The notes: generated from the letters alone by a model not told the origin. Numbered from the stretch's first letter, positions 2,457-32,707 are shown. The stretch is DNA of 64,000 nt from an uncultured Verrucomicrobiae bacterium (GCA_963746345.1 CAVVAN010000002.1:213202-277201), one strand, 5' to 3'. Numbers and translations: made by a program.

Positions 2457-2612
2457 CTAAATTCTGCCCAGCAAAAGCAGGATAAGCAGAATCGCCAGAA
2501 GCAATCCCAATCCGCCGCTCGGATAATAACCCCAATTCTTGCTATGCGGCCATGTGGGAAATGCGCCGACCAACATAAGTATGAGCAGCACCAGTAAAAT
2601 AGTTCCTAACAT
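2457..2612 (-). CDS. DUF3309 family small membrane protein
   Basis: Hand-translated 51 aa: MLGTILLVLLILMLVGAFPTWPHSKNWGYYPSGGLGLLLAILLILLLLGRI. Below the ORF-track size cutoff. Confidence 0.7.
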   Translation of the reverse strand: MLGTILLVLLILMLVGAFPTWPHSKNWGYYPSGGLGLLLAILLILLLLGRI

Positions 2613-2648
2613 AAATTTCCTTTCAATGTGTGAATGTGGTTCGCTTGA

Positions 2649-5385: not shown

Positions 5386-6531
5386 TCAACGCGTCTTTTC
5401 GGGCGTGTGGCGAATGGAATTTTCACTTCGATGGTGGTGCCTTTGCCCGGAGAGGATTCGACGCAAAAAGTGCCGCCGACCATTTCCACCCGTTCCCTCA
5501 TGCCGAGCAGTCCGAGGCGTTTTCTGCCCTTGGCATTGCAACACGCGTTCCACTTGAAAAGATTTGCCGTCGTCTTTTATTTTCATGCAGATGCCGTCCG
5601 GCAGTTTCTGGATGCTCACTTCCACCCGGCTGGCTTGCGCATGGCGGGCCACATTGGTGAGCGCTTCCTGCGCGACGCGATAAAGCACCGTGCGCTTGGT
5701 TGCTGTCCAATTGTTCCACTCCCGCAAAGGCCGTCAATTGAACGTGCGAATGCCCGTCCGCTTGGAAAAAATTTTCACGAACGAATGCAGCGCGGGAATC
5801 AGTCCGAGATCGTCCAGCACCGCCGGGCGCAATTCGCGCGCGAACTGATGCACGATGTCCACGGATTTTTCCACCAGCCGTTGCGTGCGGGCGATGTTGC
5901 GGTCGAGACCCTTGGTGTTGAGCGCGGCCTCCTTTTTCAAGGTCGCCAGCCGGACGTTGATGCCCGTCAAAGTCTGGGCGATGACATCGTGCAGTTCGCG
6001 GCTGATTTTTTTCCGCTCATCCTCCTGCGCCGAAAGAATCTGGCGGGACAAACGCCGCAACTGTTCCTGCAGGTGGTCCGACTGTTCCAGCAACTTGCGA
6101 GTAATGGTGTTCGCTTTTTTTGAGCGCCTCCTCCGCCGCCTTGCGCTGGGAGATTTCCAGGCTCAATTCCAGGTTCGAGGCGGCCAGTTCCACCGTGCGC
6201 TGGCTCAACGCCTCGACGAATTTTTTCAGCTGGGCGGCGGCTTCCCGCGCGCTGCGATGCGTTTTCTCAATCGGAGTGATCGCCGCGGCAAAGAAAATTC
6301 CCGCCTGCTTGATGAGCGCGGCGCGTTTGCCGGCCGGGCTGCCCGGCAACAATTCTGCTGACCAGATGTCTGCTCGTGGAGCTTGGCCAGGTCCAGCGTC
6401 TGCAATCCGGCGGCCAGAGCCTGGCTGCCCAGTCCGCGCGCCGAATCCAGGCTTGCCGCCGTGCCCTGCTTCAAATGTGTTCGCAACGCGGCCTGATAGC
6501 GTCGCGACAAATTGATGAGCTTGTGTTTCAT
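5386..6531 (-). CDS. sensor histidine kinase, RsbU_N-like N-domain + HisKA_3 + HATPase_c (frameshifted)
   Basis: MKHKLINLSRRYQAALRTHLKQG.., SAQEDERKKISRELHDVIAQ (H-box), ARELRPAVLDDLGL and VAQEALTNVARHA. The pieces lie in several frames. Confidence 0.8.
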
Positions 6532-7230
6532 GCGTTCCTGAATTCGCGCGCGACCCGCCGCACGGATTTCGCCGACTTTGCCACCAGCCGTTGCGTGCTG
6601 GCGATTTCATTTTTGAGACCCTTGGTGTTGAGCTCGCGCCTCCTGTTTCAAGGAAAGCAGCCGGACATTGATGCCCAACAAGAGTCTGCGCGATTTCATC
6701 TTGAAGTTCGCGGCTGATGCTTTTGCGCTCGTCCTCCTGCGCCGCCAGCACCCGATGCGTCAGTTGCCGCAAACGCTTCCTGCAACTGGAGCGATTCCTT
6801 CAAACATTTGTTGTAATGCTGTCCGCTTTTCTCGAGGGCGGCTTCCATGACTTTGCGCCGGATGACTGCCGCGTTGCAATTGGCGGTTGGAGGCGGCCAG
6901 TTCTTCCGTGCGCTGGTCCAATGTTTCCTTCAGCCGGTTCAAGTGAACATTGCCCTGCCGCGCGGCGCGATGCGTTTCCTCAATCGGAATGTTGGCCTCG
7001 GTAAAAAAAATTCCGGCGAGTCTGGTCAGCGCATTTTTCCTGTCGGACAATTCGAGCGTGGCAAGCGCGTGCTCGTGAATCCGCGCAAGCTCCAAAGTCT
7101 CCAGACCGAGCGCGACGGCTTGGCGTCCGAGTCCCAGCGCCGGCTGCAAGCTCGCCTGCGGGCCTTGCTTTAGGTGTTTTTCCAAAGCCGCCGCGTATCG
7201 TTGTGACAATCCGATTAATCTTTTTTCCAT
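6528..7230 (-). pseudogene. degenerate paralog of the adjacent kinase: RsbU_N-like + DHp only, H-box His replaced by Gln, no ATPase domain
   Basis: MEKRLIGLSQRYAAALEKHLKQG.., AAQEDERKSISRELQDEIAQ (CAA at 6701-6703). Ends ...VAREFRNA with its TGA overlapping the ATG of the next kinase. Also contains frame breaks. Confidence 0.6.
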
Positions 7231-11506: not shown

Positions 11507-11596
<90 letters not shown>

Positions 11597-11651
11597 GTTA
11601 TGTTGATTTAATTGGTTGAAATGCTGGTTTCCACATTTCTCAATTTGCATT

Positions 11652-11676
11652 TTCTATACTGGTGTTCTATACTATA
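11652..11676 (+). repeat. tandem TTCTATACT repeats (candidate integrase arm-type sites), left
   Basis: TTCTATACTGGTGTTCTATACTATA. Repeated with one mismatch at 32518-32542. Confidence 0.6.
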
Positions 11677-11679
11677 CGC

Positions 11680-12795
11680 ATGAAGACCAATTTATCGGAT
11701 AATACAGACGCACGTTGGCAAAAAACACCCGTGGCAAATCTCGTCCGCCACGTTCAATCAGGAAACTATTATGCGCGAATTCGGGTTCGCGGCAAGCTGA
11801 TTTGGAAGTCGCTCAAAACCGACCGAATCAGCGTCGCCAAACTGCGGTTAGGCGATTTCCACAAAGAGGAGCGGCAACGCGCAGCTGCGCAGACGGCGGT
11901 TGCGCGGGGAAAAATGACTTTTGCCGACGCCCTGCAAACCTACCGCGAGCGGCTAAACGGCGACCAGTCTCTCAAAGAGCGAAGCAAAGCATACCGTGAG
12001 GAACGAATTACGGCTTTGCTCAAATCCTGGCCCGATCTCAATCAGATGGATGTTGCCCAAATCTCCAAAGCCGATGGCTTGGCCTGGGCCGCGCGATTCG
12101 GAAAAACCGCCAGTCCGTCGGCTTTCAACAATACCATCGGAACATTCAAGTTGGTTTTGGACATCGCGGTTGAGGCGGGCGCGCGTTACGACAATCCCGC
12201 CGTTCACATCAAACGGAAAAAAATCCGGCTGAAGCAATTGCAGCTTCCGAGTCAAAAGCAGTTCGTTGAATTGATAAACACAATCAGGAACGGGGATGGT
12301 GGCTGGGCGGAACGGTGCGCCGACCTTGTGGAGTTCTTGGCATACAGCGGATGCCGAAAAGGTGAAGCCGCACGCGTTAATGGTCGGGACTGTGATTTTG
12401 AAAAAGGCGAATTCACAGTTTTGGGCGACCCTGCCACCGGAACCAAGAATTGGGAAATTCGCCGCGTTCCCATGATTCCCGATATGCGCCGACTGTTGCA
12501 GCGGCTGCAAAAAGAGCGTGGTGAAACAGAATTTTCAAGCAAACCAGTCATGCTTATTCACGAGTGTCAGGGTGCGATTGATACGGCCTGCACGAAGCTG
12601 AGCATCGTCCGCATCACACATCACGATTTGCGCCACCTGTTCGCCACGCGGTGTATTGAATCTGGCGTTGACATCCCGACCGTTAGCCGCTGGCTTGGCC
12701 ACAAGGACGGCGGCGCACTGGCGATGAAAGTTTATGGGCATCTGCGCGACAGTCATTCTACTGCAATGGCGCAAAAAGTTCGATTTGTCGAGTAA
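11680..12795 (+). CDS. int: tyrosine-type site-specific integrase
   Basis: GCRKGEA (Arg), HDLRH, WLGH and VYGHL (Tyr) catalytic boxes. Lies next to the tRNA. The ATG at 11680 is preferred over the GTG at 11662. Confidence 0.85.
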   Translation: MKTNLSDNTDARWQKTPVANLVRHVQSGNYYARIRVRGKLIWKSLKTDRISVAKLRLGDFHKEERQRAAAQTAVARGKMTFADALQTYRERLNGDQSLKERSKAYREERITALLKSWPDLNQMDVAQISKADGLAWAARFGKTASPSAFNNTIGTFKLVLDIAVEAGARYDNPAVHIKRKKIRLKQLQLPSQKQFVELINTIRNGDGGWAERCADLVEFLAYSGCRKGEAARVNGRDCDFEKGEFTVLGDPATGTKNWEIRRVPMIPDMRRLLQRLQKERGETEFSSKPVMLIHECQGAIDTACTKLSIVRITHHDLRHLFATRCIESGVDIPTVSRWLGHKDGGALAMKVYGHLRDSHSTAMAQKVRFVE

Positions 12796-12875
12796 GTGAA
12801 TTTTGCTTCCGCTGCGTCGGGCTGCAAACCGCCTCTAAAAACGAGCGCGAGGCAGAGGTTGAGTTTGGGGTTCAC
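12753..12875 (-). pseudogene. orphan leader remnant (VNPKLNLCLALVF...) abutting the int 3' end
   Basis: GTG overlaps the stop of the 668-aa gene. Only the conserved leader block is present, and the ORF then runs into the int gene. Confidence 0.45.
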
Positions 12876-14878
12876 GGTTTGGTCGCTCGCACGGCACGAA
12901 TTAACAGATCGTCTCCGCCATTGTAGAATCGAAAATCGGCGCCACCATTTTGACGGCCCGCAAAAAGGGCGTCGTTCACTTGAAACCGGGCTGATTTCCA
13001 TTGTCCTGTGTTGGTTCTATGGACGTAATTTGGATGCGCTTTGTAAACTCCCCTCACCGCTGCTTGTAGATCGTTGGAATCGTATTCCAGCCCAATATCG
13101 CCGGTTCCAACGTCCAGATATTCTAACTCGATCTCCAGATTGCTATGGGGCGGGAGTCGGAATTTTTTATCCTTTGCCAAATAAAAAAATTGTGGGGGCG
13201 TATGTTTTGGCAAAAACCAGCATGACGTTCCATCATGTTCGACAATTTTGAAGTCTCCGTCACCAGCACCGACTGGCGTCAAGCCATCAGATGTTCCAGG
13301 ACGCCCGACAATTGTTGAGATGTCAGTATAGGTCTCCGCCGGATTTCCAAGATGATAGTAATTGCGAATCGTTGCGAACTGGTCCTTCGGCAACAGAAAT
13401 ACATACCGGTCGGGAAAAGCCAGTTCGCTCCGATTGACTTGCCGCGTGACTGCGGCATAACCACGGTCTCCACGGCCAAAATCCCCGGCGATACAGGTGA
13501 GATTGCAGAATACCGGGACCTTGGGATTGGGAGTCATCAACGCAAGCTCATGGGCCAGTTGTTCTTCGCTTCTAACTGCAACCGTTCCCAATTTTGGCGC
13601 AAAGCCGGCTTGGATCGCTCCACCTTCACCGATGACTCCGTCCAGTCCGCAGGTTTGCAAATACATGTTGTATTTCACGCTTGGATTTGGTGCCAGCCAC
13701 ATAATAACGGTATGAAAACCTGCATCTACGCACCAATCACGAGAAAGCTTGCACCATGCTGGAAATAATTCGGCGTTGAAATCGCGAATATGTATGAATT
13801 GAACGCCGGTTGGTCCGGCCATGAGTTCGTCGTTGTCTGTCATTCTTGAGTAAAACCAATCCAATAATGGAGAATTTAACTCCTGTAACGTAGGACTTAA
13901 CTCCATTGCGACCGGGACGGTTCCGTGAGGAGTCCCTTGCCAAAGATCGCGCCAAAGATGATAGATGGGATTTTGGTCGAAAAAGATATTATCTCCATCG
14001 CTGAATATGATTGAAACATAGACCTTCCCCTTTTGAGCTACAACGGCCCGACCAGGAGCCTGCGTGTAAGTCTTATCAGGAAAGCTCGACCAGAAACTTC
14101 CATTCGCATACAGATTGCTTACCACATAACCAATGCCGAATGGATTGGAGACTATGTTGGCCAAATCACCCGTATTTGCATACCCCATCAACGAAGTTCC
14201 AACCCCGTAACCCGTGGTCTGAAAAATCTTTTGCACTTCCGACCGTTCACCATCGAAATCGAGCCAGAAAACAAAACCTTTGCTTGCAACTGCATAATCA
14301 ATCAAGGGCGTATTCAGGGCCGTTGCAAAAACTACTTGTTTGTTGCAGTTGGGCATCAGGTTGGCAAGCGCCCAGTTGTAGGCCTCCGTTCGATTGCCCC
14401 ACCTCGTCCTGAAATCCTCCGTTTCACCTTTCCAGTCAAATTCAGCCGTAAGCTGATTCCTAACGGCTTCCGTCACAGGGATGCCGTTTTGCTGGGCCGA
14501 GGCCATCAAAGCTAAATAAAAAGTCCAATCCTTTTCAGGGTCGTATAGGAACATTTTTTTGATTTGAGACTGATATTTTTTGAAAAGCGATCTTAACCCG
14601 GCATTCTCTCCACCTGGCAATTTTAAAACTTCAAACGGCTTGCCGCTATATTTCAACTGCTCCCAATCCCATTCGCTGATGGCAACATAGACCTCAGCGG
14701 ATTCTTGGTTGACCATGCCTTCCAACGCCCAGCTTGTCATGATGCCTGATTTGTCTTTGCTGCAATCGGCGACATAGACCTTCGGTGCTGCCGGCATTTT
14801 CGGAAACAACCCACTGGCTGCAAATATCGGCCGCACACTTAATGTGAGCACGAGGCAGAGGATGATTTTTGGTTTCAT
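12872..14878 (-). CDS. secreted protein, putative glycoside-hydrolase-like (paralog of 16430-17980) with extra C-terminal beta-rich domain
   Basis: 668 aa with the MKPKIILCLVLTLS leader. Long collinear similarity to the 524-aa ORF. The GIGYVVSNLYANGSFWSSF motif is reminiscent of GxGYxYP-family proteins, with low certainty. Confidence 0.6.
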   Translation of the reverse strand: MKPKIILCLVLTLSVRPIFAASGLFPKMPAAPKVYVADCSKDKSGIMTSWALEGMVNQESAEVYVAISEWDWEQLKYSGKPFEVLKLPGGENAGLRSLFKKYQSQIKKMFLYDPEKDWTFYLALMASAQQNGIPVTEAVRNQLTAEFDWKGETEDFRTRWGNRTEAYNWALANLMPNCNKQVVFATALNTPLIDYAVASKGFVFWLDFDGERSEVQKIFQTTGYGVGTSLMGYANTGDLANIVSNPFGIGYVVSNLYANGSFWSSFPDKTYTQAPGRAVVAQKGKVYVSIIFSDGDNIFFDQNPIYHLWRDLWQGTPHGTVPVAMELSPTLQELNSPLLDWFYSRMTDNDELMAGPTGVQFIHIRDFNAELFPAWCKLSRDWCVDAGFHTVIMWLAPNPSVKYNMYLQTCGLDGVIGEGGAIQAGFAPKLGTVAVRSEEQLAHELALMTPNPKVPVFCNLTCIAGDFGRGDRGYAAVTRQVNRSELAFPDRYVFLLPKDQFATIRNYYHLGNPAETYTDISTIVGRPGTSDGLTPVGAGDGDFKIVEHDGTSCWFLPKHTPPQFFYLAKDKKFRLPPHSNLEIELEYLDVGTGDIGLEYDSNDLQAAVRGVYKAHPNYVHRTNTGQWKSARFQVNDALFAGRQNGGADFRFYNGGDDLLIRAVRATKP

Positions 14879-14888
14879 GGTTCAACTT

Positions 14889-15854
14889 TTACGGCTTCCA
14901 AAGTGCAGTTGGACAACCGCCAAAAGTCTTTTCCCAGCCAGTGGTCCCCGGCAGGTAATAGACAATTGCTTTACTATCGCCATCGAACGCGTGGTAAATA
15001 TCTATGCCTTTGTAACCATGGTATTCACCATGTCCGGGAGCATTGCCACGGAAATAAACTCCCTTCAGACTGACGCAGGAGTCGAACGCCCAGATTTCAA
15101 TGTTGGTGACGCTGGCGGAGAGCGTGACACTGGTCAGGCTGGAGCAAGCAGCGAAGGCCTCTTTCTTGATAGTGGTTACGCCCACGGGGATGGTAATGCC
15201 GGTCAATTTGGGGCAATTCCACAAAGCATAATCCGCTATTTTGGTGACGGTGTTGGGAATGGCATAATTTCCGGCTTTGCCGGCCGGATATTGAACCAGT
15301 TCAGTTTTGTTCTTGTTGAACAAAACCCCGTCCACACTGCTGTAAGCGGTATTGTTTGAATCCACGATTATACTTTTCAAGCCGAAACAGCCGCCAAACG
15401 CAAGCCTTCCAATGCTGGCGACATTTTTGGGAATCTTGATACTGCTCAGTTTGTCGCAGAAATGAAATGCCCCCCGCCCAATACCAATGATGCCATTGCC
15501 AAGAACAATATTTGTCAGGCTGCTGTGGGAATCAACGGCTGAAAATGCTTCCTCCCCGATGTTGGTGACGCTGTCGGGAATTACCACGCTGGTCACTACG
15601 GGGGCGGCCCAGAACGCACGGGATCCGATGCTGGTGACGGCCAGGCCGTTGATGTTGCTTGGAATGATCAACGCGCCACTTGCCCCCATGTAGCGCATGA
15701 TGGTGGCAGTGACGCCATCGGTGTTGGTCGAATAATTGAATGGGCCTTGTGCCGCCTTGGACGACCGGTTTGGGAAATTGGCGGAGGTAGAGCAACCACC
15801 GCTGGCAAGCCCGCTCAAAACAAGAGCGAGGCAGAGGGTGATTTTAGGTGTCAT
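14889..15854 (-). CDS. BspA-type leucine-rich-repeat lipoprotein
   Basis: MTPKITLCLALVLSGLASGGCS, then repeated IPxSVTxIGxxAFxxCxxLxSI units. C-terminal YYLPGTTGW..FGGCPT motif. Confidence 0.75.
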   Translation of the reverse strand: MTPKITLCLALVLSGLASGGCSTSANFPNRSSKAAQGPFNYSTNTDGVTATIMRYMGASGALIIPSNINGLAVTSIGSRAFWAAPVVTSVVIPDSVTNIGEEAFSAVDSHSSLTNIVLGNGIIGIGRGAFHFCDKLSSIKIPKNVASIGRLAFGGCFGLKSIIVDSNNTAYSSVDGVLFNKNKTELVQYPAGKAGNYAIPNTVTKIADYALWNCPKLTGITIPVGVTTIKKEAFAACSSLTSVTLSASVTNIEIWAFDSCVSLKGVYFRGNAPGHGEYHGYKGIDIYHAFDGDSKAIVYYLPGTTGWEKTFGGCPTALWKP

Positions 15855-16326
15855 GGTTTGAAATATGCCTACGCCTAGACGCTCGCAACTGTTTCCACAA
15901 TCGCATAGCGACCATGAGAAGCACAATGCTGAACAACGGCGAGATAAAAAATGGGATCTCCCGAAAAGCCTCCCACACACCATAGTCGTTAGACTCGAAT
16001 CCGAACGTAATCAGCCGGGGTTTATGGTGTGTCATATAGAATATCAGGCCAAAGCCGAGGATGACAAAGGCCAACACGACGCAACAGGCCGCTTTCGCCA
16101 AGATATTTCGTTCAGAGTTTTTGACTTCCATATCGTTGGCAACCCAGATGATTACAGCCAAAATAGCAATGCCAGTCACGTCGAAATAGCCGGCCTTGCC
16201 TAAAAAAGTCAGAACGACAAAAACAAGACCGAGAAGCAAAACAACGGATGGCAATCGGCGGTTGCCGTTCACAAAGGACAACAGATTTCCACCGATCCAT
16301 GCGATGAGAGCTATAAAGAAGAACAT
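15844..16326 (-). CDS. polytopic membrane protein, hypothetical
   Basis: MFFFIALIAWIGGNLL... with 4-5 hydrophobic helices. A TTG at 16356 is an alternative start. Confidence 0.5.
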   Translation of the reverse strand: MFFFIALIAWIGGNLLSFVNGNRRLPSVVLLLGLVFVVLTFLGKAGYFDVTGIAILAVIIWVANDMEVKNSERNILAKAACCVVLAFVILGFGLIFYMTHHKPRLITFGFESNDYGVWEAFREIPFFISPLFSIVLLMVAMRLWKQLRASRRRHISNHDT

Positions 16327-16348
16327 GACGCGTGTTATTTCCTGTCGC

Positions 16349-16408
16349 CTAACCAAGCAAACTGCCGCTCAAAACGAGCGCGAGGCAGAAGATGAGTTTG
16401 GGTTTCAT
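16349..16408 (-). pseudogene. orphan leader mini-ORF MKPKLIFCLALVLSGSLLG-stop
   Basis: Full conserved leader followed by TAG. It is one frame off from the downstream membrane ORF, so it is either a remnant or an assembly frameshift. Confidence 0.4.
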
Positions 16409-16429
16409 TGAACCGATAATTCTAATTTT

Positions 16430-17980
16430 TCATGGATTTGCCGGAAGATGACAGTAATCACGTATTGTGGCGAATATGTCTTTCGGCAGCATAAACACAA
16501 ACCGGCCTGGATAAACCGCGTTAAGCCGGTCAATTTGTTGTTTGATTTTTGTGTAGCCATTAAAATTATCCTTTGTGTAGCCGGCCACAATGCACTTGAA
16601 CCCCAAAAACATGGGGGATCTTTGGCTTGGTTTTACTTGTGACAGCCAGTCAAATATTTCGTTTGGATTCCATGACCCGCGTCCTTCATCCATTACTGGC
16701 GTTCCGGCGTCATATCGAACCCATCTGGCGTCACCAGCGTTTAGAATTCCAGTCAGGCCGCAGGCGTTGATGTAGGTGGTGTATTTTGCGCTTGGATATA
16801 TGGTATGCCACAAAAAACCAGTTCGGAATCCAGCACCGTCCATCCATGATTTGTTCAATTTGCACCATGCGGGAAAAAGATTTTCGTTGAAATCCTCGCC
16901 GTAAATGAACTGAAGGCCATAAGCCACAAGTTCATCATTCGTTGTCATATTTGAGTAATACCAATCCAGTAATGGGGTATTGAACTCCTGCATGGAAGGG
17001 CTGCTGGTGGTGCCGACCGGAACTGTCCCGCGTGCGGGATCATGCCAAAGATTCCAGATCGCATTTTGGGCGAACTGGAGGTTGTCGCCGTCACTCCAGG
17101 TAATGGTTACATAAATTTTGCCCGGCACCGCCTTGGTGGCTTTTCCAGGAATTTGTTTATAGGTCTTGTCAGGAAAACTCGACCAGAAACTTCCATTCGC
17201 ATAAAGATCGCTCGCGACATAGCCAAAGCCGAATGGATTGCAGACCTTGTTCGCTTCATCGCCCGTGTTGGCATATCCCATCATTGAAGTGCCAACGCCG
17301 TAACCGCCGGCCCTAAATATCTTCTCCACCATTGACCTGTCACTGTTAAAATCCATGCCGAACACAAAACCCTTGCTGGCGACCACATAATCAACTAGCG
17401 GTAATTGGCTCCCGACAGCAAAAACGACCTGCTTGTTGCAACCGGGCATCAGATTTGCAAGCGCCCAGTCGTAAGCTGCCATTTGTTTGGGAAACCTGCC
17501 TCGGAAATCCTCGACTTTCCCTTGCCAATGAAATTCCGAAGTCAGCTCGTCTCTTACCTGTTCGCTTACCGGAATTCCACCCTGTTGGGCCGCTGACATC
17601 AACGCCAGATAGCAGGTCCAATCCCGACTGGGATCATAAACAATCATCCGCTTCACGCGGTCTTGGTATTTATTGAAAAGCGTTCTCAAGCCGGAATCGT
17701 TTCCGGCCAATGGTTCAAGCAGCTCAAACGGTTTGCCGCAATCCTTGAGTTGCTCCATGTGGCGCTCCTTCTCCTTTTCGATGACGTAAACCTCCGCGCT
17801 CGTTTGATTGATCAGGCCTTGCAACGCCCAAGCCGATGTCCTGGCTTCCGCGCTGTCATTACGGCAATCCACGACATAAACATTCGTTGCTGCCGGCATT
17901 TTGGGAAACAACCCGCTGGCGGCCAAGACCGGCCGCACGCTCAAAACGAGCGCGAGGCAGAGGAGGAGTTTAGGTTTCAT
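16430..17980 (-). CDS. secreted protein, paralog of 12872-14878
   Basis: MKPKLLLCLALVLSVRPVLAASGLFPKMPAA..., collinear with the 668-aa protein through about 500 aa. Confidence 0.6.
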   Translation of the reverse strand: MKPKLLLCLALVLSVRPVLAASGLFPKMPAATNVYVVDCRNDSAEARTSAWALQGLINQTSAEVYVIEKEKERHMEQLKDCGKPFELLEPLAGNDSGLRTLFNKYQDRVKRMIVYDPSRDWTCYLALMSAAQQGGIPVSEQVRDELTSEFHWQGKVEDFRGRFPKQMAAYDWALANLMPGCNKQVVFAVGSQLPLVDYVVASKGFVFGMDFNSDRSMVEKIFRAGGYGVGTSMMGYANTGDEANKVCNPFGFGYVASDLYANGSFWSSFPDKTYKQIPGKATKAVPGKIYVTITWSDGDNLQFAQNAIWNLWHDPARGTVPVGTTSSPSMQEFNTPLLDWYYSNMTTNDELVAYGLQFIYGEDFNENLFPAWCKLNKSWMDGAGFRTGFLWHTIYPSAKYTTYINACGLTGILNAGDARWVRYDAGTPVMDEGRGSWNPNEIFDWLSQVKPSQRSPMFLGFKCIVAGYTKDNFNGYTKIKQQIDRLNAVYPGRFVFMLPKDIFATIRDYCHLPANP

Positions 17981-18004
17981 GGTTTGGTAGCTGTGGAATT
18001 GCAA

Positions 18005-19084
18005 TTATTGTTTCGGTAGCGCATCGAGGATTTGATTCAACTCAGCAATTTTTTTGTCCCATTCTTTCCACACTGGATCAGTTCCTGACCACATATTAAC
18101 GCCTGCCGCACCATGACTTTTCCATAATATGACATTGGTTCCATTTTTTAATACCTCACGGCCACCGAAGAGAAGCATGTCTGAACGCGGGAACTCCAAT
18201 TTCAGATTTAGCAATGAATTGATTGCTCTCGCCGCCTTATCGCAAATTCGCATTGTGGTTATGCCGTCCCCCAACCCACCTGGGTCATCAGCCAAATCTT
18301 TTTCTTCAAGATAGGGGCGCAATACTGAAACCATAGCCGGATCGTGGCTTTCACTCAGCATCCATACAGCATTACACCACATCTGCCCTTTTAGTTGTGG
18401 ATTAACGGAAGTATTCGTCAAGGAGGGGAAAATTGTCAGCACGGATTTACTGAGACGTGGTGGAATTGTGGTGTTGGTTGCCCAAAGCGAATAATGCCGG
18501 TCGAGCACCGAAAGCGCATTTTCGATCACGATCCAGGAAACTTGTTTAGGCGCGGCAGCTTTGTAAACTGTCGTAGCGGTAGAAGCGTTTTTCTCAATCA
18601 TTTCGATGACCGGCTCAAGCAACGAATCATCCCAAATTCCGGGTAGTGGTGAAAATAAATCCATAATCGCTATCTCGCCTCGTGTCGCTAATGCCTCACG
18701 ATAAAAAGAAATCACAGTGGCATCATGTGGCCAGCGTCGATTTACGAGATCCATCAATGCGGTAAATTGGAAGCCAGGCAGGCTGTCGTCCAGTTGCCGC
18801 TGCTTTATCGCTGCCAACACCTGTTCCCGCGTGACAACTATTGCCACCTCTGGATCGCGAAGCAGCTTGACCAGCCGATCATTTTCAGGCTGGGTCAAAT
18901 ATGGCGAAAAATCTCCGCCACGTCGGGAAAAGTTCGGCAGATTGGTATGAACACTATCCGGGCTGGTTTTTGCCAGCAATGCGCATAACTCCTGTTGTTC
19001 CGTTTTAAGCAGCTCGTCCGCGTGAACCGCGTAACCGATGCAACTCAAAACGAGCGCGAGGCAGAGGACGAGTTTGGGTTTCAT
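18005..19084 (-). CDS. secreted hypothetical protein (helical)
   Basis: 359 aa, leader MKPKLVLCLALVLS. No family recognised. Confidence 0.5.
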   Translation of the reverse strand: MKPKLVLCLALVLSCIGYAVHADELLKTEQQELCALLAKTSPDSVHTNLPNFSRRGGDFSPYLTQPENDRLVKLLRDPEVAIVVTREQVLAAIKQRQLDDSLPGFQFTALMDLVNRRWPHDATVISFYREALATRGEIAIMDLFSPLPGIWDDSLLEPVIEMIEKNASTATTVYKAAAPKQVSWIVIENALSVLDRHYSLWATNTTIPPRLSKSVLTIFPSLTNTSVNPQLKGQMWCNAVWMLSESHDPAMVSVLRPYLEEKDLADDPGGLGDGITTMRICDKAARAINSLLNLKLEFPRSDMLLFGGREVLKNGTNVILWKSHGAAGVNMWSGTDPVWKEWDKKIAELNQILDALPKQ

Positions 19085-19087
19085 AAA

Positions 19088-19990
19088 TCAAAGATCATTA
19101 TCCGGGTCTGAATCTACAATTTCGCCTTTGGTGTTATAGAACGCTCCATCTTTCTCAACGTAGAGCCATGAGAAGTTGCTGCCCCAATCATCCTGGGCTA
19201 AAGTTAGGATTCCATTGCCAAAGGCGACCTTGATTATGCTTCCGGTCGCCAACTGAAGTTTGCTTAACTTGGAAAGAGATTCGTCGAAGTGAATCGTGAT
19301 GACTTCTCCGGGCTTCTCGTAAGGAATCCATCCAAGCGCCGTGGGCAAAGGTTTTATGAGTTTGACGGTGATTGACCGCAATATACCAGATGTCTTGTGA
19401 ATGCGAATGACCTTGCCTTCAATACCGAAGATGTGTGAAGTAATTTTGCCATTCGTTCCTTTTTCATTCAATCCATATCCATTAAACGAATCAGCTTCTT
19501 CTTGCTGCTCAATCGTGAAATAATCGAAACCGTCTTCAATGTAGGCAAAGCGCAGCGTTTTGGTGTCGAGAACAAAATCAGTCTCGGCAAGACGTCCCCA
19601 AGGCACTTTCACAAACAGCATTTTGTCGTTCAACCAAGTGTGATGAACTTCGTAGGCGCCATGGTCAAGCAATTCCACGCAAACGCACCGATTTGTGTCG
19701 GCAGAATTAAAAATGTAAAGCCGTGTATTCCATGGCGCGTCACGCGTCCAGACCGGCCTTTCTTCAGCCAGTAAGGGCGAACCATTTTCTCTTTTGTCCT
19801 CTGGTTCCACAACCGATTTAGCCAATTGCTCATTCGTGAGATAAATCCGTTCGATTTTGATTTTTTGCAAATTCTCCGAAGACGGTTTTGAATAAGTGAC
19901 GTTTTCCTGCCGGGTCGGTTTGACAGTTGAGCAGCCAAATAACCCGCCGCTCAAAAAAAGCGCGAGGCAGAGGAGGAGTTTGAATTTCAC
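19088..19990 (-). CDS. hypothetical lipoprotein
   Basis: GTG start gives VKFKLLLCLALFLSGGLFGCST (lipobox). Confidence 0.5.
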   Translation of the reverse strand: MKFKLLLCLALFLSGGLFGCSTVKPTRQENVTYSKPSSENLQKIKIERIYLTNEQLAKSVVEPEDKRENGSPLLAEERPVWTRDAPWNTRLYIFNSADTNRCVCVELLDHGAYEVHHTWLNDKMLFVKVPWGRLAETDFVLDTKTLRFAYIEDGFDYFTIEQQEEADSFNGYGLNEKGTNGKITSHIFGIEGKVIRIHKTSGILRSITVKLIKPLPTALGWIPYEKPGEVITIHFDESLSKLSKLQLATGSIIKVAFGNGILTLAQDDWGSNFSWLYVEKDGAFYNTKGEIVDSDPDNDL

Positions 19991-19995
19991 AGTGA

Positions 19996-20079
19996 TTAAA
20001 CACCGAAGCGGCCATTTGTTGCGGTGGGATCGCGGTCTCTCAAAACGAAGGCGAGGGAGAGGATGATTTTTGAGTCCAT
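19996..20079 (-). pseudogene. degenerate orphan leader (MDSKIILSLAFVLRD...)
   Basis: Leader-like DNA block between two genes. The upstream gene terminates inside it in another frame. Confidence 0.4.
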
Positions 20080-20540
20080 GGCCTAACAATAATTTTCAAA
20101 TTTATGAATTTATCATCAGAACAACTGTCAAAAGCGATTCGCAACGGCGTGCCGTTTGTGACGCCGAATGGCCAAGATTGCGAAATGCCAAGCGAATTGC
20201 GCTGTTCGATGGTTGGCTCACGCAACCGTAGAATTTGTATGGTTTTTTCATCAAACTCACCTTTTACTACACGCTCCACCTGTAGTGTCATATCATACTT
20301 CCAATGTTTTGGCATAGGCGCACCCACCGAGAGATTTTCCGGCACATTATAATCCGCGCGCGCCCAAACTTTTGTGCAGGTGGCATCCAGCACGATCCGG
20401 CTTGAAGATTCTAATTCGGATGATTGTGCAGCTGCTAATGCGGTGAACGATTGTGTGCCCATGCCACGACAGCCGGTGAACATCAAAAGCAAACCGCCGC
20501 TCAAAACGAACGCGAGGCAGAGGAGGAGTTTTAAGTTCAA
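20040..20540 (-). CDS. hypothetical lipoprotein
   Basis: TTG start gives LNLKLLLCLAFVLSGGLLLMFTGC. The last 13 codons are read from leader-like DNA. Confidence 0.45.
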   Translation of the reverse strand: MNLKLLLCLAFVLSGGLLLMFTGCRGMGTQSFTALAAAQSSELESSSRIVLDATCTKVWARADYNVPENLSVGAPMPKHWKYDMTLQVERVVKGEFDEKTIQILRLREPTIEQRNSLGISQSWPFGVTNGTPLRIAFDSCSDDKFINLKIIVRPWTQKSSSPSPSF

Positions 20541-20544
20541 GCTT

Positions 20545-21477
20545 TCATTCTCCCTGATGCGATGCAATCAAACTTTGTAATTTAATTGCCGCCGCTTTCT
20601 CTTTTTCCGTATTTGGAAATCCTTCTGGAATGTATGGGTTCAAACGATTGAGATCAGATACATCAAGCGCACGCAGCGGCACCCCCAGTTTTTGCAGGTC
20701 GGTGGTGGTAAATTGAAATAAGCCTTTCAACGGCATGGCACCTACTTTGAAATCCGAAAAACCAAATACTCCATCTCCTCTTTGAATTTTGACTTCGGCC
20801 ACACCAAAGGAATTATTCGGATCGTCTTTGGCCAATGCAACCTCAAGCGAACCTTTGCTGGATGAGATTTTGATTTTTTTATCGTCACTCAAATAGGCCA
20901 GACTGGTCATTTTTGCCACAGAGCCTTGAATGATAAATCGCAAGTCAAAAACCACCGCTGGTGGAACATTGGTGCCGATAAAATTCATTTGAAAGTCTGC
21001 ATTGGTTCTATCCACACTCTGATACAATCCCCACTGGACCGTTCCCCCGTTGAAATAAGCCAATTCTCCAGAATTATCTTGGTCGCAGATGACACACAGG
21101 TGGTCCGCCATCAACAAATAGGGCAGACCGTCCGGTGTCTGGAGCAAAACGGTTGCATGTTCCCGGTTGGCGGCGATTTGCATGTTGATTAACGGATGAC
21201 CGGGGCGCGAAAGTTGGGCCTTAAATGAAAATCGGTCTATCAGTTTAGGTGCGATGATATTCGCATAATTAAAGGTCGGTGAGTCTGACGAGGTTTGCCC
21301 TTGAGCGACTGGAATTATTAACTTTGGCCTCGATGCCAGCACCAAGGTTTTCGTTTCAAAAAGATTATTCAGAATGTTTGTTGCCGTTGGGTCGCCATGA
21401 GCTCTTTGTGGAGCAAAAAGAACTAACGAAGCACCGCTCAAAACGAGCGCGAGGCCGAGGATAAGTTTTGATTTCAT
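20545..21477 (-). CDS. secreted hypothetical protein
   Basis: MKSKLILGLALVLSGASLVLF leader, 310 aa. Confidence 0.5.
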   Translation of the reverse strand: MKSKLILGLALVLSGASLVLFAPQRAHGDPTATNILNNLFETKTLVLASRPKLIIPVAQGQTSSDSPTFNYANIIAPKLIDRFSFKAQLSRPGHPLINMQIAANREHATVLLQTPDGLPYLLMADHLCVICDQDNSGELAYFNGGTVQWGLYQSVDRTNADFQMNFIGTNVPPAVVFDLRFIIQGSVAKMTSLAYLSDDKKIKISSSKGSLEVALAKDDPNNSFGVAEVKIQRGDGVFGFSDFKVGAMPLKGLFQFTTTDLQKLGVPLRALDVSDLNRLNPYIPEGFPNTEKEKAAAIKLQSLIASHQGE

Positions 21478-21490
21478 GGTTTGCTCCAAC

Positions 21491-22162
21491 CTATTTAACT
21501 CGTTTCAGGACTATTATGGCTGCCTGCACTGGATGTCCGCTCGCCAATCCTTCCTCCTTGAAAGAAACAGAATCAACAATCCAACCCTGCTGCTCATAGT
21601 TCTTTAATTGCGTTCTCCAAGGGAAAGCATACAACGATGAATAGCCATTGTTGTTCAAACCGGGATAATCAAGCCTCTGGACAGATTTGTATTCACAATT
21701 CTGCGCTTTCAGAAAATCCCACAACTTGATTTCATAAAACGAACCACCACCTAGCAAAGGCCTTTTGCCATCCGGCCCAATCACATAAGGAATCTCTTCA
21801 AAGATAAAACAAATATCCGGTCTCTTCATTAATTCATTTGACGCAATAAAATCAACCTTCCAAGTGTGATCATCTTTTTTCAGTGTGATCTGCGGCTTGA
21901 GACTTTCCGGTTGAATCGAATCAACATTCTTTTCGTGCTTCATGTCAAGCCAGACAAGAGAATAGGGAGAAAAGTCACCTTGCTTTGAGGTGATGGTGAT
22001 GTGAAAAGCTTTTCCGCCTTGCGCAGCATTGTTGGAAACCGAAAAAACGTAAGTGCCCTGATCCAAATTATTGGTAGTGACAGGAATGTCTGCCATATAC
22101 GCAGATGCGGTCAAACCGCCGCCCAAAACGAGTGCGAGGCAGAGGAGGAATTTGGGTTTCAT
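21491..22162 (-). CDS. secreted hypothetical protein
   Basis: MKPKFLLCLALVLGGGLTASAY leader. Confidence 0.5.
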   Translation of the reverse strand: MKPKFLLCLALVLGGGLTASAYMADIPVTTNNLDQGTYVFSVSNNAAQGGKAFHITITSKQGDFSPYSLVWLDMKHEKNVDSIQPESLKPQITLKKDDHTWKVDFIASNELMKRPDICFIFEEIPYVIGPDGKRPLLGGGSFYEIKLWDFLKAQNCEYKSVQRLDYPGLNNNGYSSLYAFPWRTQLKNYEQQGWIVDSVSFKEEGLASGHPVQAAIIVLKRVK

Positions 22163-22181
22163 GGGTTGGAATTCCATTATG

Positions 22182-23129
22182 TCAGTTGGCCAAAGCGTGT
22201 CCGTGAGTGTATTTGTAGAGACTCGAAGGCACAACAACCCGATAGCTTATGTCATCCACGCTGACTTCGATTTGTCCCCAGCATCGTAAATCATCTCCAT
22301 ATCTTCCGAATTGGAATGTATCCGTTCTCTGCCAATGATTATCACTAAGGTGAAGATTAACACATGCGCCATTTATCACAGTGCCATCGGCGTCGAGAAT
22401 GCGAACGGCTGTTTTAGGTGAGTCCAGCCGCCACGCTGAAACATCACTGTAGAGCACCACTTCGCTCTCGGTGTCAAATGGATTGGCCTGTTTAAGCGAC
22501 AACTCCAAATGCTCTTTCCGAGACAAGTCAAACTCAACATTTTCCCAGCGCACGACATGATCGTGCTCAGTCAGCGATTTCATGGCGGCAACAAATTTGG
22601 GAGGGCCCGCATGAATCGAAGGCGGCGGCGGGTCTGCCGGGTTCCGATCAAATCCATAGGGAATTTCCACCCAATACCGTTCCGATCCTATCGAGACCTC
22701 AACCCAACAGTCTTCAAGCGCATTTGTGCCCCACGGAAAATAGGTCACCACTTGCGGAACTAGTTTCATGCCCGGATACGAGGCCGTGCTAACGCCAATT
22801 GGAGCATTCAGAAGTTCCATTCCTTCTGCCGTTGGCTCGACGATATCGCCATTCGCCCGATATAACTGCGCTGCGATGGCGTTAGTTTTAAAAAATCCAA
22901 ATCCCTGCACAATATTCATAATATCCAAACGCAGCCCGCGCGATACTTGATCGTCTCGTTCGCCTGAACTGACTAAAAAAAACGGCTCATTCGACAGATT
23001 TGTCGGGGATGGAAAATTGATATATTTCCAAATTGTTAATTTTCGCGGCTGGCTATTTGTTTTTGGTTCAACAGCGAATAAATGGGTGCTCAAAACGAGC
23101 GCGAGGCAGAGGATTGGTTTGGGGTTCAT
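22182..23129 (-). CDS. secreted hypothetical protein
   Basis: MNPKPILCLALVLSTHLFA leader, 315 aa. Confidence 0.5.
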   Translation of the reverse strand: MNPKPILCLALVLSTHLFAVEPKTNSQPRKLTIWKYINFPSPTNLSNEPFFLVSSGERDDQVSRGLRLDIMNIVQGFGFFKTNAIAAQLYRANGDIVEPTAEGMELLNAPIGVSTASYPGMKLVPQVVTYFPWGTNALEDCWVEVSIGSERYWVEIPYGFDRNPADPPPPSIHAGPPKFVAAMKSLTEHDHVVRWENVEFDLSRKEHLELSLKQANPFDTESEVVLYSDVSAWRLDSPKTAVRILDADGTVINGACVNLHLSDNHWQRTDTFQFGRYGDDLRCWGQIEVSVDDISYRVVVPSSLYKYTHGHALAN

Positions 23130-23135
23130 GGTTTG

Positions 23136-23624
23136 TTATCTTTCATCGGCAAATTCCTTCAAATTAAAAATATAATCAGAAGGCCCTCCATCAAATTCAC
23201 CGTAGCTCTCTTCGACTCTAAATTCAGATGTTTCAAGAAATTTGACTGCGACGCCAAATTCAAAAACGATGCATTTAGCCCTCAACGGTTTTGGAATTTC
23301 ATCAAATATTGTCCCTCCCGTTAATTGTCGTGCCTCGACCGATGTGTCGCCAATGACTTTATGGCTGCCCTTTATGCTGGCGTCATTGATTTCCAGATTC
23401 CCGGAATAAATATAATGCTTGTCCTTTGGTATCACGACGACAGTGAAAAACACTACTTCATTGTTCGTAAAATTGATGTGCGCCGTTTTAATTTTGAGGA
23501 AAGAAAAATCGGTTTTAAGGTTCGCGTGATTGATTTGAATTTCGGCTACATAGCCGTAGGCGCGTTGTGTGGCAAAAGAGCAGAAAAAAACAAGCGCGAG
23601 GCAGAGGATGAGCTTGGGTTTCAT
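23136..23624 (-). CDS. secreted hypothetical protein
   Basis: MKPKLILCLALVFFCSFATQRAYG leader. First gene of the array. Confidence 0.5.
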   Translation of the reverse strand: MKPKLILCLALVFFCSFATQRAYGYVAEIQINHANLKTDFSFLKIKTAHINFTNNEVVFFTVVVIPKDKHYIYSGNLEINDASIKGSHKVIGDTSVEARQLTGGTIFDEIPKPLRAKCIVFEFGVAVKFLETSEFRVEESYGEFDGGPSDYIFNLKEFADER

Positions 23625-23901: not shown

Positions 23902-25146
23902 TTATTCTTTGAATTTCTCCAACGTAGTTGTGCAGCGGCTTTGAATTAGCGTAGCTACAGCTTTGGTGGTGGGGTGCTCGGTGATCAAGTCGGGCGTTTT
24001 TGACAGGACTGTTTCCGCCAGTTCCTTCACATGTTGTTTCACCATCGGCTTGGCCAGTCCCGCTTCATCGGCCAGTTGATCAAAGTGTTTCGGCAACACC
24101 TTGTCGGAGGCATATTCACCGCCGATCTTCATCGCCATTTTTGGGGCAAGTTCCGGGTAATAGGCCGTGCTGAGAACATCGTAAAGCGGCGCGAGCCGCG
24201 TCTCGCGACCGTAAAGCAACGAAAAATTCTTTCCATGAGCATCATGGTTTCCGACCAGAAAATTGAAAATGACGGCATCCAGCAATCGTTGGAGGTCAAT
24301 CACCGGTGCACTGGACAATTCACGCAGCAACGCGAAACACTGTTTGAGCGAAGGCCCGCCTTCGTTCTGGTATTTATTGTCAGGACTGATGCCAAGCGCC
24401 TGGCAAAAATCTTCCTGATGTTCCCGTTCCAAATATTCGGGACCGTCTGGAGCATCCCGCAACGCGATCCGATCGTAACGCTGAATAATGAGATAATCAA
24501 TGTCCTCTACCTTGCCCACTTCGGCTTTGGCCGTGTGCAGACCAATCGCATGGGCGAGTTTCATGCAGAAAGCTTCATTGAACACGATACCTTCAAAACG
24601 CTCAATGGCCGGTTTTATAATATGAGTGCTGGGGGCTCCGCCAAGCGGGATGGAAATATGATCGTCGGCGACATGCACGGCAATTTTGTCCTGCGCACCA
24701 GCCAACGAAAGTCGAATGCCATCCTCTCCTGCCATTAGCGGACGTCGTGGCAACAACCTGAGAATTTCCGCCAGTTTTTCGCCGGTCAACGGGCGATAAC
24801 TGTAATTGCGTTCCGGCAGTTTTCCCCCCACCGGTATAAATGTCACGGCTCCGGCACATTCGCCACCGATTTGCTCCAGCATGGCAAAATCGTTTCTGGC
24901 ACTGATTCCGAGATTCTTTGCGATAATCTCGCGTTTACTTTCATCAGGTAGAACACCGGCAAAAAATCCCCGGCACTCGTTGCGGTTAAACCGCCCTTTT
25001 CTGAGTGGCAGCGAATGTGACAGCGGAATTGCGCCTGCATGGTTCAACCAGCTTTCGGCATAATGATATGCCATCTTGCCATTCTCATCCTGAATGAGCT
25101 GGCCCACCAAGTGCCGCCGTAAATAAACGTCTAATGTCCGTGGCAT
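23902..25146 (-). CDS. hipA: HipA-family Ser/Thr kinase toxin
   Basis: 414 aa with LSLAGAQDKIAV and VGNHDAHGKNFSLLY motifs. Stands 3 nt after hipB. Confidence 0.9.
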   Translation of the reverse strand: MPRTLDVYLRRHLVGQLIQDENGKMAYHYAESWLNHAGAIPLSHSLPLRKGRFNRNECRGFFAGVLPDESKREIIAKNLGISARNDFAMLEQIGGECAGAVTFIPVGGKLPERNYSYRPLTGEKLAEILRLLPRRPLMAGEDGIRLSLAGAQDKIAVHVADDHISIPLGGAPSTHIIKPAIERFEGIVFNEAFCMKLAHAIGLHTAKAEVGKVEDIDYLIIQRYDRIALRDAPDGPEYLEREHQEDFCQALGISPDNKYQNEGGPSLKQCFALLRELSSAPVIDLQRLLDAVIFNFLVGNHDAHGKNFSLLYGRETRLAPLYDVLSTAYYPELAPKMAMKIGGEYASDKVLPKHFDQLADEAGLAKPMVKQHVKELAETVLSKTPDLITEHPTTKAVATLIQSRCTTTLEKFKE

Positions 25147-32666: not shown

Positions 32667-32707
32667 ATTTCGAGTCAGGTGCCTTTAACCACTCAGCCAC
32701 CCTTCCG
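32667..32707. repeat. att repeat, right copy (orphan tRNA-Ser 5' half)
   Basis: 41/41 identical to 11557-11597. No 3' half follows it. Confidence 0.9.

Follow-up and report, generated by a model that had tools for sequence, protein, structure and literature searches.

Shared leaders and arrays of exchangeable genes are known from several bacterial systems. In the erp genes (OspE/F-related, "upstream homology box") of the cp32 prophages of Borrelia burgdorferi, mature parts of many separate origins follow a single conserved lipoprotein leader; recombination generates and reshuffles the genes, and mobile replicons carry them. The vsp, vlp, vsa and vpma loci of Mycoplasma are lipoprotein clusters in which a DNA-conserved 5′ region and signal peptide serve as recombination substrate; an adjacent site-specific recombinase, inverted orientations and a single expression site lead to phase variation, and the mature parts are repeat-rich paralogues. 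In phytoplasmas, a common N-terminal signal peptide, the sequence-variable mosaic (SVM) signal (PF12113), heads secreted proteins that are otherwise dissimilar, in genomes with many mobile units. An example of a protein with this SVM signal is the SAP11-like effector ATP_00189 (PMC6638208). The rAID-1 clusters of Bacteroidales combine a XerD-family recombinase with repetitive intergenic sequences and skewed GC content (10.1101/471110). We describe here a gene array on the minus strand of a stretch of 64,000 nucleotides (nt) from an uncultured Verrucomicrobiae bacterium (GCA_963746345.1, CAVVAN010000002.1:213202-277201), hereafter called the window, in which unrelated secreted proteins start with nearly the same leader, conserved down to its synonymous sites. 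We consider it fairly probable that this leader, a shared Sec/signal peptidase II (SPII) signal-peptide module, acts as portable homology for leader-to-leader recombination, which would give rise to modular cassette arrays.

In the window, the leader feature is real and statistically overwhelming. Positions 12753-23624 contain 13 minus-strand copies of a block of about 45 nt (ATGAAACCCAAACTCATCCTCTGCCTCGCGCTCGTTTTGAGCGGC, which is the consensus, and MKPKLILCLALVLSG), with start codons at 12875, 14878, 15854, 16408, 17980, 19084, 19990, 20079, 20540, 21477, 22162, 23129 and 23624. The 20-nt core CTCTGCCTCGCGCTCGTTTT, searched with at most 3 mismatches, gave 12 matches, all within 12838-23606, as against 0.01 in shuffled sequences; the 13th copy (14878) is more divergent than these, and no further copy was found in the remainder of the 64-kb window at either the DNA or the amino-acid level. 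Ten of the 13 leaders head intact open reading frames (ORFs) of 162-668 amino acids (aa), the three others (12875, 16408 and 20079) being orphans, in line with the initial annotation, which was drawn from the sequence alone and had counted 13 copies in 11 kb, three of them orphans. Gaps between consecutive genes range from -4 to 24 nt, and promoters and terminators occur inside the array at chance level only. The GC content is 0.477 in the array, 0.548 in the rest of the mobile element that carries it (see below) and 0.535 outside this element, so that the AT-richness first perceived by eye is confirmed.

The conserved block, previously put at about 40 nt, does exist, while its limits had to be revised: it extends from the ATG, with a weak AACC immediately 5′, to about +45 and decays to +60. 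It encodes the n- and h-regions of a signal peptide of the ordinary Sec or lipoprotein (SPII) type. In full, the consensus MKPKLILCLALVLSGGLFGC is a lipoprotein signal peptide, with a positively charged n-region and a hydrophobic h-region (MKPK followed by LILCLALVLSGGLF), in which K4 is invariant and L7, C8, L9, A10, L11 and L13 are each at least 90% conserved. The consensus contains the lipobox LFGC, and a relaxed regular expression of the [LVI][ASTVI][GAS]C type matches 82 of 179 leader ORFs; leader ORFs without a lipobox, as well as most window genes, diverge beyond residue 15 or so into other cleavage regions. Within the window, a lipobox is clear in the genes starting at 19990 and 20540 and possible in that at 15854, the others having cleavage regions that are ambiguous or resemble those of signal peptidase I (SPI). 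Other secreted proteins and lipoproteins in the window (starts at 2179, 3068, 11208, 33784 and 38419) have ordinary, different signal peptides, such as MKKIGLRRRIYTLALVVLSLCSS, MINKKLFFNTKTVGLVLCAAFFGTLTGC and that of the BON protein; these five starts agree with the earlier remark that they do not use the leader, which is not a generic signal peptide of this genome. The array reads as follows (L numbers designate leader loci outside the window):

23136-23624, minus strand: cassette 1, leader (23580-23624) and 162-aa secreted protein, no Pfam family; homologues (58-69%) in L043, L054 and L069
22182-23129, minus strand: cassette 2, leader and 315-aa protein with an all-beta AlphaFold2 model; family of at least 124 clusters, all hypothetical proteins
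21491-22162, minus strand: cassette 3, leader and 223-aa protein, no known family
20545-21477, minus strand: cassette 4, leader (preceded by GGAGCAAACC) and 310-aa protein, no known family
20040-20540, minus strand: cassette 5, TTG-start leader and 166-aa predicted lipoprotein (FTGC lipobox); homologues in L005, L010, L068 and L072
19996-20079, minus strand: orphan degenerate leader, 27 codons then stop, overlapping the end of cassette 5
19088-19990, minus strand: cassette 6, GTG-start leader and 300-aa predicted lipoprotein (LFGC lipobox); ratio of non-synonymous to synonymous substitution rates (dN/dS) 0.25-0.40
18005-19084, minus strand: cassette 7, leader and 359-aa protein, no known family
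16430-17980, minus strand: cassette 8, leader and 516-aa GxGYxYP-family protein, putative glycoside hydrolase (PF14323, PF20957, PF20958, PF16216)
16349-16408, minus strand: orphan leader, 19 codons then stop
15844-16356, minus strand: 170-aa hydrophobic ORF without leader, probably a multi-pass membrane protein, in the +1 frame directly behind orphan 16408; no Pfam match
14889-15854, minus strand: cassette 9, leader and 321-aa BspA-type leucine-rich repeat (LRR) protein, possible lipobox SGGC (PF13306, 1e-37)
12872-14878, minus strand: cassette 10, most divergent leader and 668-aa GxGYxYP-family protein, paralogue of cassette 8
12753-12875, minus strand: terminal orphan, leader and about 20 codons of an LRR-type gene, truncated at the integrase stop codon

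At the nucleotide level, synonymous sites of the leader are conserved far beyond amino-acid needs. Over 167 leaders, the information content is about 0 from -60 to -5, goes up at the ATG, remains at 1.0-1.9 bits as far as +45, third codon positions included, and has faded by +60. The codon CTC represents 16% of leucine codons in the mature parts versus about 95% (85-98%) at leader leucine positions 5, 7, 9 and 11, and identical degenerate residues share the same codon at a frequency of 0.86-0.90 in leaders versus 0.32-0.41 in mature parts (homologues of 30-60% identity). This frequency was still 0.75 between non-homologous genes of different genomes when neither copy came from the exact search, by which the first 58 loci had been retrieved (exact 20-mer, species-representative genomes). 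Another 16 metagenome loci, forming a second set, were retrieved via a cargo protein, that of cassette 6, and not via the leader; the codons CTC, GCG, GTT and AGC were kept there in 48/49, 48/50, 47/48 and 44/45 cases, respectively, and 47 of 48 amino-acid-level leader matches were also matches at the nucleotide level. Since this cargo-found set offers the same picture, leader conservation is not an artefact of the way the loci were found. Codon bias, codon sharing and information content thus bear out the conservation at the DNA level that had been proposed from the window alone.

The leader is a lineage-wide feature and is not unique to the window island. The exact 20-mer was found in 58 stretches, nearly all belonging to metagenome-assembled genomes (MAGs) of Verrucomicrobiia, Limisphaerales or "subdivision 3" from peat, bog and soil, the few matches under other taxon labels being chance matches and probably mis-binned contigs. 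When a nhmmer profile made from the 13 window copies was applied to these 58 loci, it yielded 181 further matches, 158 of them scoring at least 25 bits, almost always in co-directional arrays with up to 8 leaders per 8 kb; L067 has 13 leaders within 11 kb, and L065 a solitary leader gene. In about 75 loci, mostly of Verrucomicrobiia MAGs, more than 230 further genes begin with the leader. Searched exhaustively with a profile, 1.84 billion representative proteins provided at least 400 clusters (50% identity, E ≤ 1e-3) with the leader at the N-terminus, a majority of these matches reading MKPKLILCLALVLSGGLFGCS(T/S); an alignment of 40-aa N-termini used as database query returned only orphan ORFs of 26-69 aa, probably owing to length-biased picking of candidates. 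The MAG of locus L040 and the window share 89-92% identity in four aligned stretches, about 2.4 kb in all, at 44.5-47.3 kb of the window, which places the window in the leader-bearing Verrucomicrobiia lineage. The initial annotation had considered the leader specific to the island cargo; this view has to be abandoned, as arrays also occur in ordinary chromosomal contexts and throughout the lineage. No description of the leader in Verrucomicrobia was found in the literature, whose searchable part is incompletely covered. Typical leader arrays were also seen in MAGs labelled Bifidobacteriaceae, Sulfotelmatobacter, Aquilonibacter and Terracidiphilus (L002, L003, L004, L018, L025, L027, L028, L033, L045, L047, L050 and L051), and are most likely mis-binned short Verrucomicrobial contigs rather than the result of transfer.

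Comparison of these loci shows that cassettes are re-assorted between relatives, with breakpoints inside the leader. In one MAG, an 804-nt duplicate (98.4% identity) extends from -5 of one leader to +40 of the following one, with 6 differences in the first leader and a divergence of 0.6% in the rest. We compared 18 cargo pairs of 88-100% identity lying in different contexts (ungapped identity). In 17 of them, identity was random (0.2-0.4) 5′ of the ATG, 0.67-1.00 (pooled 0.84) over nt 0-18, which is mosaic, and at least 0.85 from +18 onward (at least 0.93 in 16 pairs). Internal homology blocks likewise end within -10 to +65 of a leader ATG in 28% of cases versus 3.7% expected, with peaks at -5 to +4 and +40 to +49. 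Leader identity is flat, at 0.83-0.86, across cargo nucleotide identities of 0.55-0.89, and reaches only 0.94 at a cargo identity of 0.97; leader and cargo identities are decoupled, and the history of a leader is not that of the gene that it heads. Gene neighbourhoods point in the same direction: orthologues of cassette 6 (w19990; 66-87% identity) in the 16 metagenome loci have different neighbours in almost every contig, and a 79% orthologue of cassette 2 (w23129) lies in an array which has only two cassette types in common with the window, neighbours again differing between contigs. Cassette content therefore varies between relatives, a variation without which the initial annotation would have withdrawn its proposal. 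As for strain-level variants of the exact window array, exact-protein look-ups led to no more than the source contig and a 7-kb Logan contig of 100% identity, so that cassette variation can be demonstrated solely between species-level relatives. This Logan contig (L059/L078, ERR10755945, equivalent to window 16601-23624) starts precisely with the first leader's ATG, which suggests that leader repeats break short-read assemblies.

The architecture of the arrays is compact. Across 134 consecutive gene pairs, the median gap is 2 nt and 49 junctions (37%) are ATGA overlaps, in which the upstream stop is the TGA inside the ATGAAA of the next leader. With the stop codon so often placed inside the next leader, co-transcription with translational coupling is likely. 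Complete leader ORFs shorter than 60 aa account for 36 of 157, and many of them are frameshifted relative to the downstream body or precede an unrelated gene. Such orphans are concentrated at the 3′ ends of arrays: of 25 arrays whose 3′ end is visible, 14 (56%) finish in one, versus 21 of 153 (14%) internal leaders (odds ratio 8, p=1e-5), and the window array also ends in an orphan leader (12875). N cassettes with N+1 leaders is what would remain after a unit bearing a leader had entered a resident leader by a single crossover. The GC content of the arrays is 0.47, as against 0.55-0.57 in their flanks. Within the window, orphan 20079 has a counterpart upstream of the orthologue in L062. The leaderless 170-aa ORF behind orphan 16408 may represent another type of cassette, or a gene that took the place of the original cargo; similar leaderless membrane ORFs were observed behind orphans in L067 (8403-9242).

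Several further observations concern array ends and gene starts. A conserved leader mini-ORF of 26-27 aa (for example MKPKLILGLALVLSGAFPGCVPDIKCR*) occurs at array 3′ ends in L008 (2914-2994, minus strand), L019 (1383-1466, plus strand), L033 (998-1078, minus strand) and L018 (2731-2814, plus strand), and in L008, L019 and L017 (4309) a histidine kinase of 683-788 aa follows immediately behind the mini-ORF or a 19-aa variant of it. The mini-ORF could be a mere terminal remnant, or a tiny two-cysteine lipopeptide akin to those described as DAG-RiPPs (PMC13056109). In L017, staggered self-matches at 1993-3022 (350-900 nt, 75-79% identity, offsets of about 70-620 nt) suggest a tandem repeat some 1.3-2.3 kb upstream of the mini-ORF at 4309. 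A subset of leaders (P0040-P0046, P0095, P0108, P0165, L065 9974 and window 21478-21492) has a conserved in-frame stretch upstream, MKKVMLEQT (…TTGGAGCAAACC ATG), with a Shine-Dalgarno (SD)-like GGAG motif 6 nt 5′ of the ATG, where most leaders have only AACC.

The cargo proteins are unrelated. The 126 leader proteins of at least 90 aa form 64 BLAST families, 41 of them singletons, and several Pfam families are represented, so that the homology of mature proteins which would have reduced the arrays to duplications is not observed. A Pfam domain was found in only about 15 of 109 representative leader proteins of at least 100 aa (about 85% being without one), the families being HEAT, SLBB, serpin, Sel1, LRR_5, peptidase M14, LysM and SNase. 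In the window, the proteins of cassettes 8 and 10 are paralogues (56% identity) of the GxGYxYP family; their paralogy had been recognised, although the length of 524 aa then given to the former counts from an upstream TTG, instead of 516 aa. A 70% orthologue of cassette 8 is found in L076. The 321-aa protein of cassette 9 does match LRR_5, as expected of the BspA-type LRR protein announced, and the seven remaining cargo proteins, for which no family had been recognised, have no Pfam match, scans with NCBIfam, PADLOC and PHROGs adding nothing meaningful. A defence or phage reading of the window cargo finds no echo in PADLOC (no match), PHROGs (LRR protein only) or NCBIfam (nothing useful). Similarly, Pfam revealed no known immunity-protein family in the window's 10 proteins or in the 109 representatives with a leader, and PADLOC none. 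Values of dN/dS between cargo orthologues (0.12-0.40) indicate functional, moderately fast-evolving genes. The AlphaFold2 model of cassette 2 is all-beta (predicted local distance difference test, pLDDT, 88; predicted template modelling score, pTM, 0.84) and can be read as two beta-sandwich, immunoglobulin (Ig)-like domains; a fold search gave only generic Ig-like PDB matches (template modelling score, TM, about 0.2) and yields no function. Since remote relatives within the cassette-2 family have signal peptides that are ordinary and degenerate, the canonical leader sequence is not needed for export. We infer that the cargo represents a variable envelope or surface repertoire.

The window array is the cargo of a 21-kb integrative mobilizable element (IME) inserted at tRNA-Ser, the main features of which are listed below:

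11507-11597, minus strand: tRNA-Ser(CGA), whose 5′ 40 nt (11557-11597) are the left copy of a 41-nt direct repeat
11662-12795, plus strand: tyrosine integrase (PF00589), convergent with the array
23902-25146, minus strand: HipA-type toxin kinase, element backbone
25935-28949, minus strand: TrwC-family relaxase-helicase, mobilization module
32667-32707, no strand: right copy of the 41-nt direct repeat, 100% identical, at the far end of the element of about 21 kb

An integrase, a relaxase and direct repeats flanking at a tRNA gene are indeed all present (11557-32707), and it is to this element, rather than to the array, that the neighbouring integrase belongs. No homologue of this integrase was found in the 58 other leader loci, and it gives no tblastn match with the integrase of L076. 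The arrays of L061 and L067 lie between ordinary chromosomal genes (UvrB, GFO/IDH/MocA oxidoreductase, hydrolases), with no recombinase within 9-10 kb. A second array on a conjugative-type element was observed in L076 (10001-18400), together with TrbI, a 1587-aa helicase/methyltransferase, helix-turn-helix genes, an integrase and tRNA-Cys; this array, situated beside the integrase and tRNA-Cys and downstream of the TrbI conjugation genes, ends in a leaderless C-type lectin gene, and the integrase is convergent with it, as in the window. From these two contexts, arrays emerge as recurrent cargo of mobile elements, and such carriage would help cassettes and leaders to be shared between species. 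The repeat of the 21-kb element corresponds to the 5′ part of tRNA-Ser(CGA), not to the usual 3′ end, with the integrase on the 5′ side of the tRNA; the element has HipA and the TrwC relaxase and no visible type IV secretion system. Elsewhere in the window, we observed an IS1/IS240-like DDE transposase fragment (33920-34744, plus strand), about 1.2 kb beyond the right repeat, and, in an all-against-all BLAST comparison, a diverged direct repeat of about 375 nt (5831-6203 versus 6541-6916, 74.7% identity) outside the array.

From a mechanistic point of view, we favour leader-to-leader recombination. In the soil and peat lineage of Verrucomicrobiia (Limisphaerales, "subdivision 3"), the leader would have become a shared module, attached to hundreds of periplasmic or surface proteins that are unrelated and mostly specific to the lineage, and its 25-45 nt or so of near-identity would serve as portable homology. 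Unequal crossing-over, gene conversion and leader-bounded insertion or deletion could then duplicate, delete, swap and capture cassettes, an exchange at leaders always preserving the reading frame and the export signal, and would leave cargo-less orphan leaders behind, typically at the 3′ end of the array. The same recombination may keep the leader uniform at synonymous sites, and the 21-kb mobilizable element would offer cassettes a route between species. The process involved would presumably be general homologous recombination rather than a dedicated recombinase. Several points nevertheless weigh against this explanation. No recombination event was observed directly, all evidence being comparative. 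The first 58 loci, found by exact 20-mer search, carry an ascertainment bias, mitigated by the non-ascertained copies and by the cargo-found set. Homology blocks that begin at gene starts could partly reflect a faster decay of intergenic sequence, which does not, however, account for the pairs of 97-100% identity. Simple within-genome concerted evolution predicts genome-specific leader variants, and yet leaders differ by 8.0 per 45 nt within a locus, 7.3 within a MAG and 8.2 between MAGs (p about 0.05), with a marginal same-genome likeness in the n-region (3.65 versus 4.10 differences, p=0.016). Near-absence of genome-specific variants calls for a horizontally shared pool, or for direct selection on nucleotides. 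Third positions of the leader are, moreover, less variable than several non-synonymous positions (codons 2, 3, 5 and 6), a constancy that hints at selection on the nucleotides themselves. Simple local concerted evolution was considered as the sole cause of conservation and rejected, within-genome homogenisation being only marginal.

These points lead to the main rival of leader-to-leader recombination, with which it is not mutually exclusive: the leader nucleotides would be an expression element, i.e., a standardized region of translation initiation and early elongation for SD-poor coupled polycistrons, codons pacing targeting by the signal recognition particle and Sec, or a site through which a trans-acting RNA or protein co-regulates a regulon, recombination being a mere by-product. 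We regard it as rather unlikely that expression alone explains the arrays. The block does start exactly at the ATG, coupled junctions are frequent (37% ATGA, median gap 2 nt), some synonymous positions are more conserved than non-synonymous ones, leaders show almost no genome-specific drift, no promoter or SD is conserved upstream except GGAG in the subset mentioned above, and the A/C-rich start, with the first 25 nt or so, is predicted to be unpaired in all folds, so that SD-independent, coupled initiation on the first 18 nt or so is plausible. By contrast, an initiation context cannot account for conservation from +19 to +45, other window genes are expressed and exported without the leader sequence, distant homologues of one cargo family tolerate degenerate leaders, and orphans, terminal orphans and mosaic 5′ parts are left unexplained. 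The RNA hairpin put forward by the initial annotation as a control element found no support: the fold energies of the consensus and five window leaders resemble those of shuffled sequences (z from -1.5 to +1.4), covariation is weak (stem pair 30/42 with 4 compensatory, 9 disruptive and 15 wobble changes), and the leader matches no Rfam family, the Rfam scan finding only the tRNA. Among the three alternatives then offered, it is leader-mediated recombination or cassette exchange that the evidence supports.

The other explanations are less probable. An integron-like, site-specific system, in which a dedicated enzyme (the adjacent tyrosine recombinase or an unlinked one) would act on the imperfect palindrome CGCTC-GTTTT-GAGCG and move leader-bounded cassettes, appears very improbable, even though the array is co-directional and apparently without internal promoters, has one repeat per gene and N+1 leaders per N cassettes, adjoins a tyrosine recombinase at its 3′ end in both the window and L076, and shows a GC skew like that of the Bacteroidales rAID-1 clusters. 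The window integrase is explained by the 41-nt tRNA-Ser repeats of its own element, is without homologue in the 58 loci or L076, and has no counterpart near the recombinase-free arrays of L061 and L067; gaps of about 2 nt accommodate no attC-like intergenic element, and GTTTTGA does not fit GTTRRRY by inspection. Junction mosaics are spread over nt 0-33 instead of sharing one fixed position, and homologous exchange therefore fits better than a site-specific enzyme. A dedicated sorting signal, acting at the peptide level to address proteins to a special destination or machinery (surface exposure, lineage-specific secretion or lipoprotein transport), is improbable as well. The near-invariance of residues 7-14 (LCLALVLS), with an unusual cysteine in the h-region, and the different signal peptides of other exported proteins and lipoproteins in the window would suit such a role, but a peptide signal does not account for conservation of synonymous sites, and the arrays are linked to no transport machinery in the loci examined. 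Moreover, signal peptides are removed and hold no sorting information after translocation, and the variable cleavage regions (SPII-like in 82 of 179 ORFs, not so in 97) imply different fates after cleavage; as the peptide is a normal Sec/SPII n- and h-region followed by variable cleavage regions, a sorting signal is unnecessary. Simple tandem duplication of one ancestral gene, the mature parts diverging fast and the signal peptide being kept, can draw on true paralogous pairs, such as the GxGYxYP genes (56%) and duplicated 158-aa genes in L068. It is effectively refuted by unrelated cargo families, which span GxGYxYP, LRR_5, HEAT, serpin, M14 peptidase, SLBB and beta-sandwich proteins (64 BLAST families among 126 proteins), while dN/dS of 0.12-0.4 gives no sign of runaway divergence and leader identity is decoupled from cargo identity.

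Leader-to-leader recombination also admits a bolder version, which we put forward tentatively as a minority possibility: leader arrays may naturally exchange cassettes, with the coding sequence of the signal peptide itself as the site of recombination, and the leader nucleotides would stay constant because exchangeability itself is selected. Any ORF landing behind a leader would then be exported in one step, and could thereafter, through recombination between leaders, be duplicated, deleted or handed on among arrays, genomes and conjugative elements. This would amount to an integron-like gene capture without attC and perhaps without a dedicated integrase, giving uncultured soil Verrucomicrobia a horizontally shared pool of hundreds of envelope or surface proteins. 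The general principle would be that a signal-peptide coding sequence can double as portable homology, making exported proteins exchangeable cassettes. If true, this would explain how an abundant uncultured soil and peat lineage builds up and turns over its many, mostly unannotated, lipoproteins and secreted proteins, a repertoire of at least 400 clusters at 50% identity, of which about 85% have no Pfam domain, and would tie this exported repertoire to conjugative and mobilizable elements. The 45-nt leader would moreover offer a simple DNA tag with which to pull a set of exported "dark matter" from metagenomes, and a natural test case for synonymous-site selection versus concerted evolution.

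Leader arrays can be compared with the known systems as follows. Mycoplasma loci have a linked recombinase and opposite orientations, whereas all 13 window copies and nearly all those elsewhere are co-directional, which makes inversion switching impossible, and the cargo is unrelated, with no recombinase linked to it. The phytoplasma SVM signal has a peptide-level definition, and its bearers are small effectors dispersed over potential mobile units; compact arrays, codon-level conservation and orphan leaders are undescribed for SVM in the literature found. With integrons and rAID-1 clusters, leader arrays share co-directional and unrelated genes apparently without promoters of their own, one repeat per gene, a content that varies between relatives, skewed GC, a location on mobile elements and repeats numbering one more than the cassettes. 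The co-oriented, mostly promoterless, variable and unrelated cassettes of integrons are indeed found here, as are the skewed GC and mobile elements of rAID-1 clusters (integrative and conjugative or IME contexts, in the window and L076). Integrons, however, have an adjacent, divergent and conserved IntI, while the window integrase is convergent and not conserved, and they have attC sites (imperfect inverted repeats of 57-141 bp, with a GTTRRRY core, at the cassette 3′ end) that are absent here. The repeat lies here inside the 5′ coding sequence of the signal peptide, not in an intergenic 3′ attC, no conserved IntI or XerD partner accompanies it, and crossover positions look spread; nor does the cargo show the immunity-gene homology of rAID-1 clusters (Pfam, PADLOC). 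The closest precedent is the erp lipoprotein genes of B. burgdorferi, since here too a single conserved lipoprotein leader precedes mature parts of independent origin, with evidence of recombination and with mobile elements as carriers. The conserved erp unit includes the upstream promoter/operator, whereas nothing 5′ of the ATG is conserved here, and erp genes number one to three per locus at an allelic site, instead of standing in long co-directional rows where gaps measure 0-20 nt and ATGA overlaps occur. In comparison with erp, the leader arrays combine a far larger cargo diversity (at least 400 clusters) with free-living soil Verrucomicrobia as hosts.

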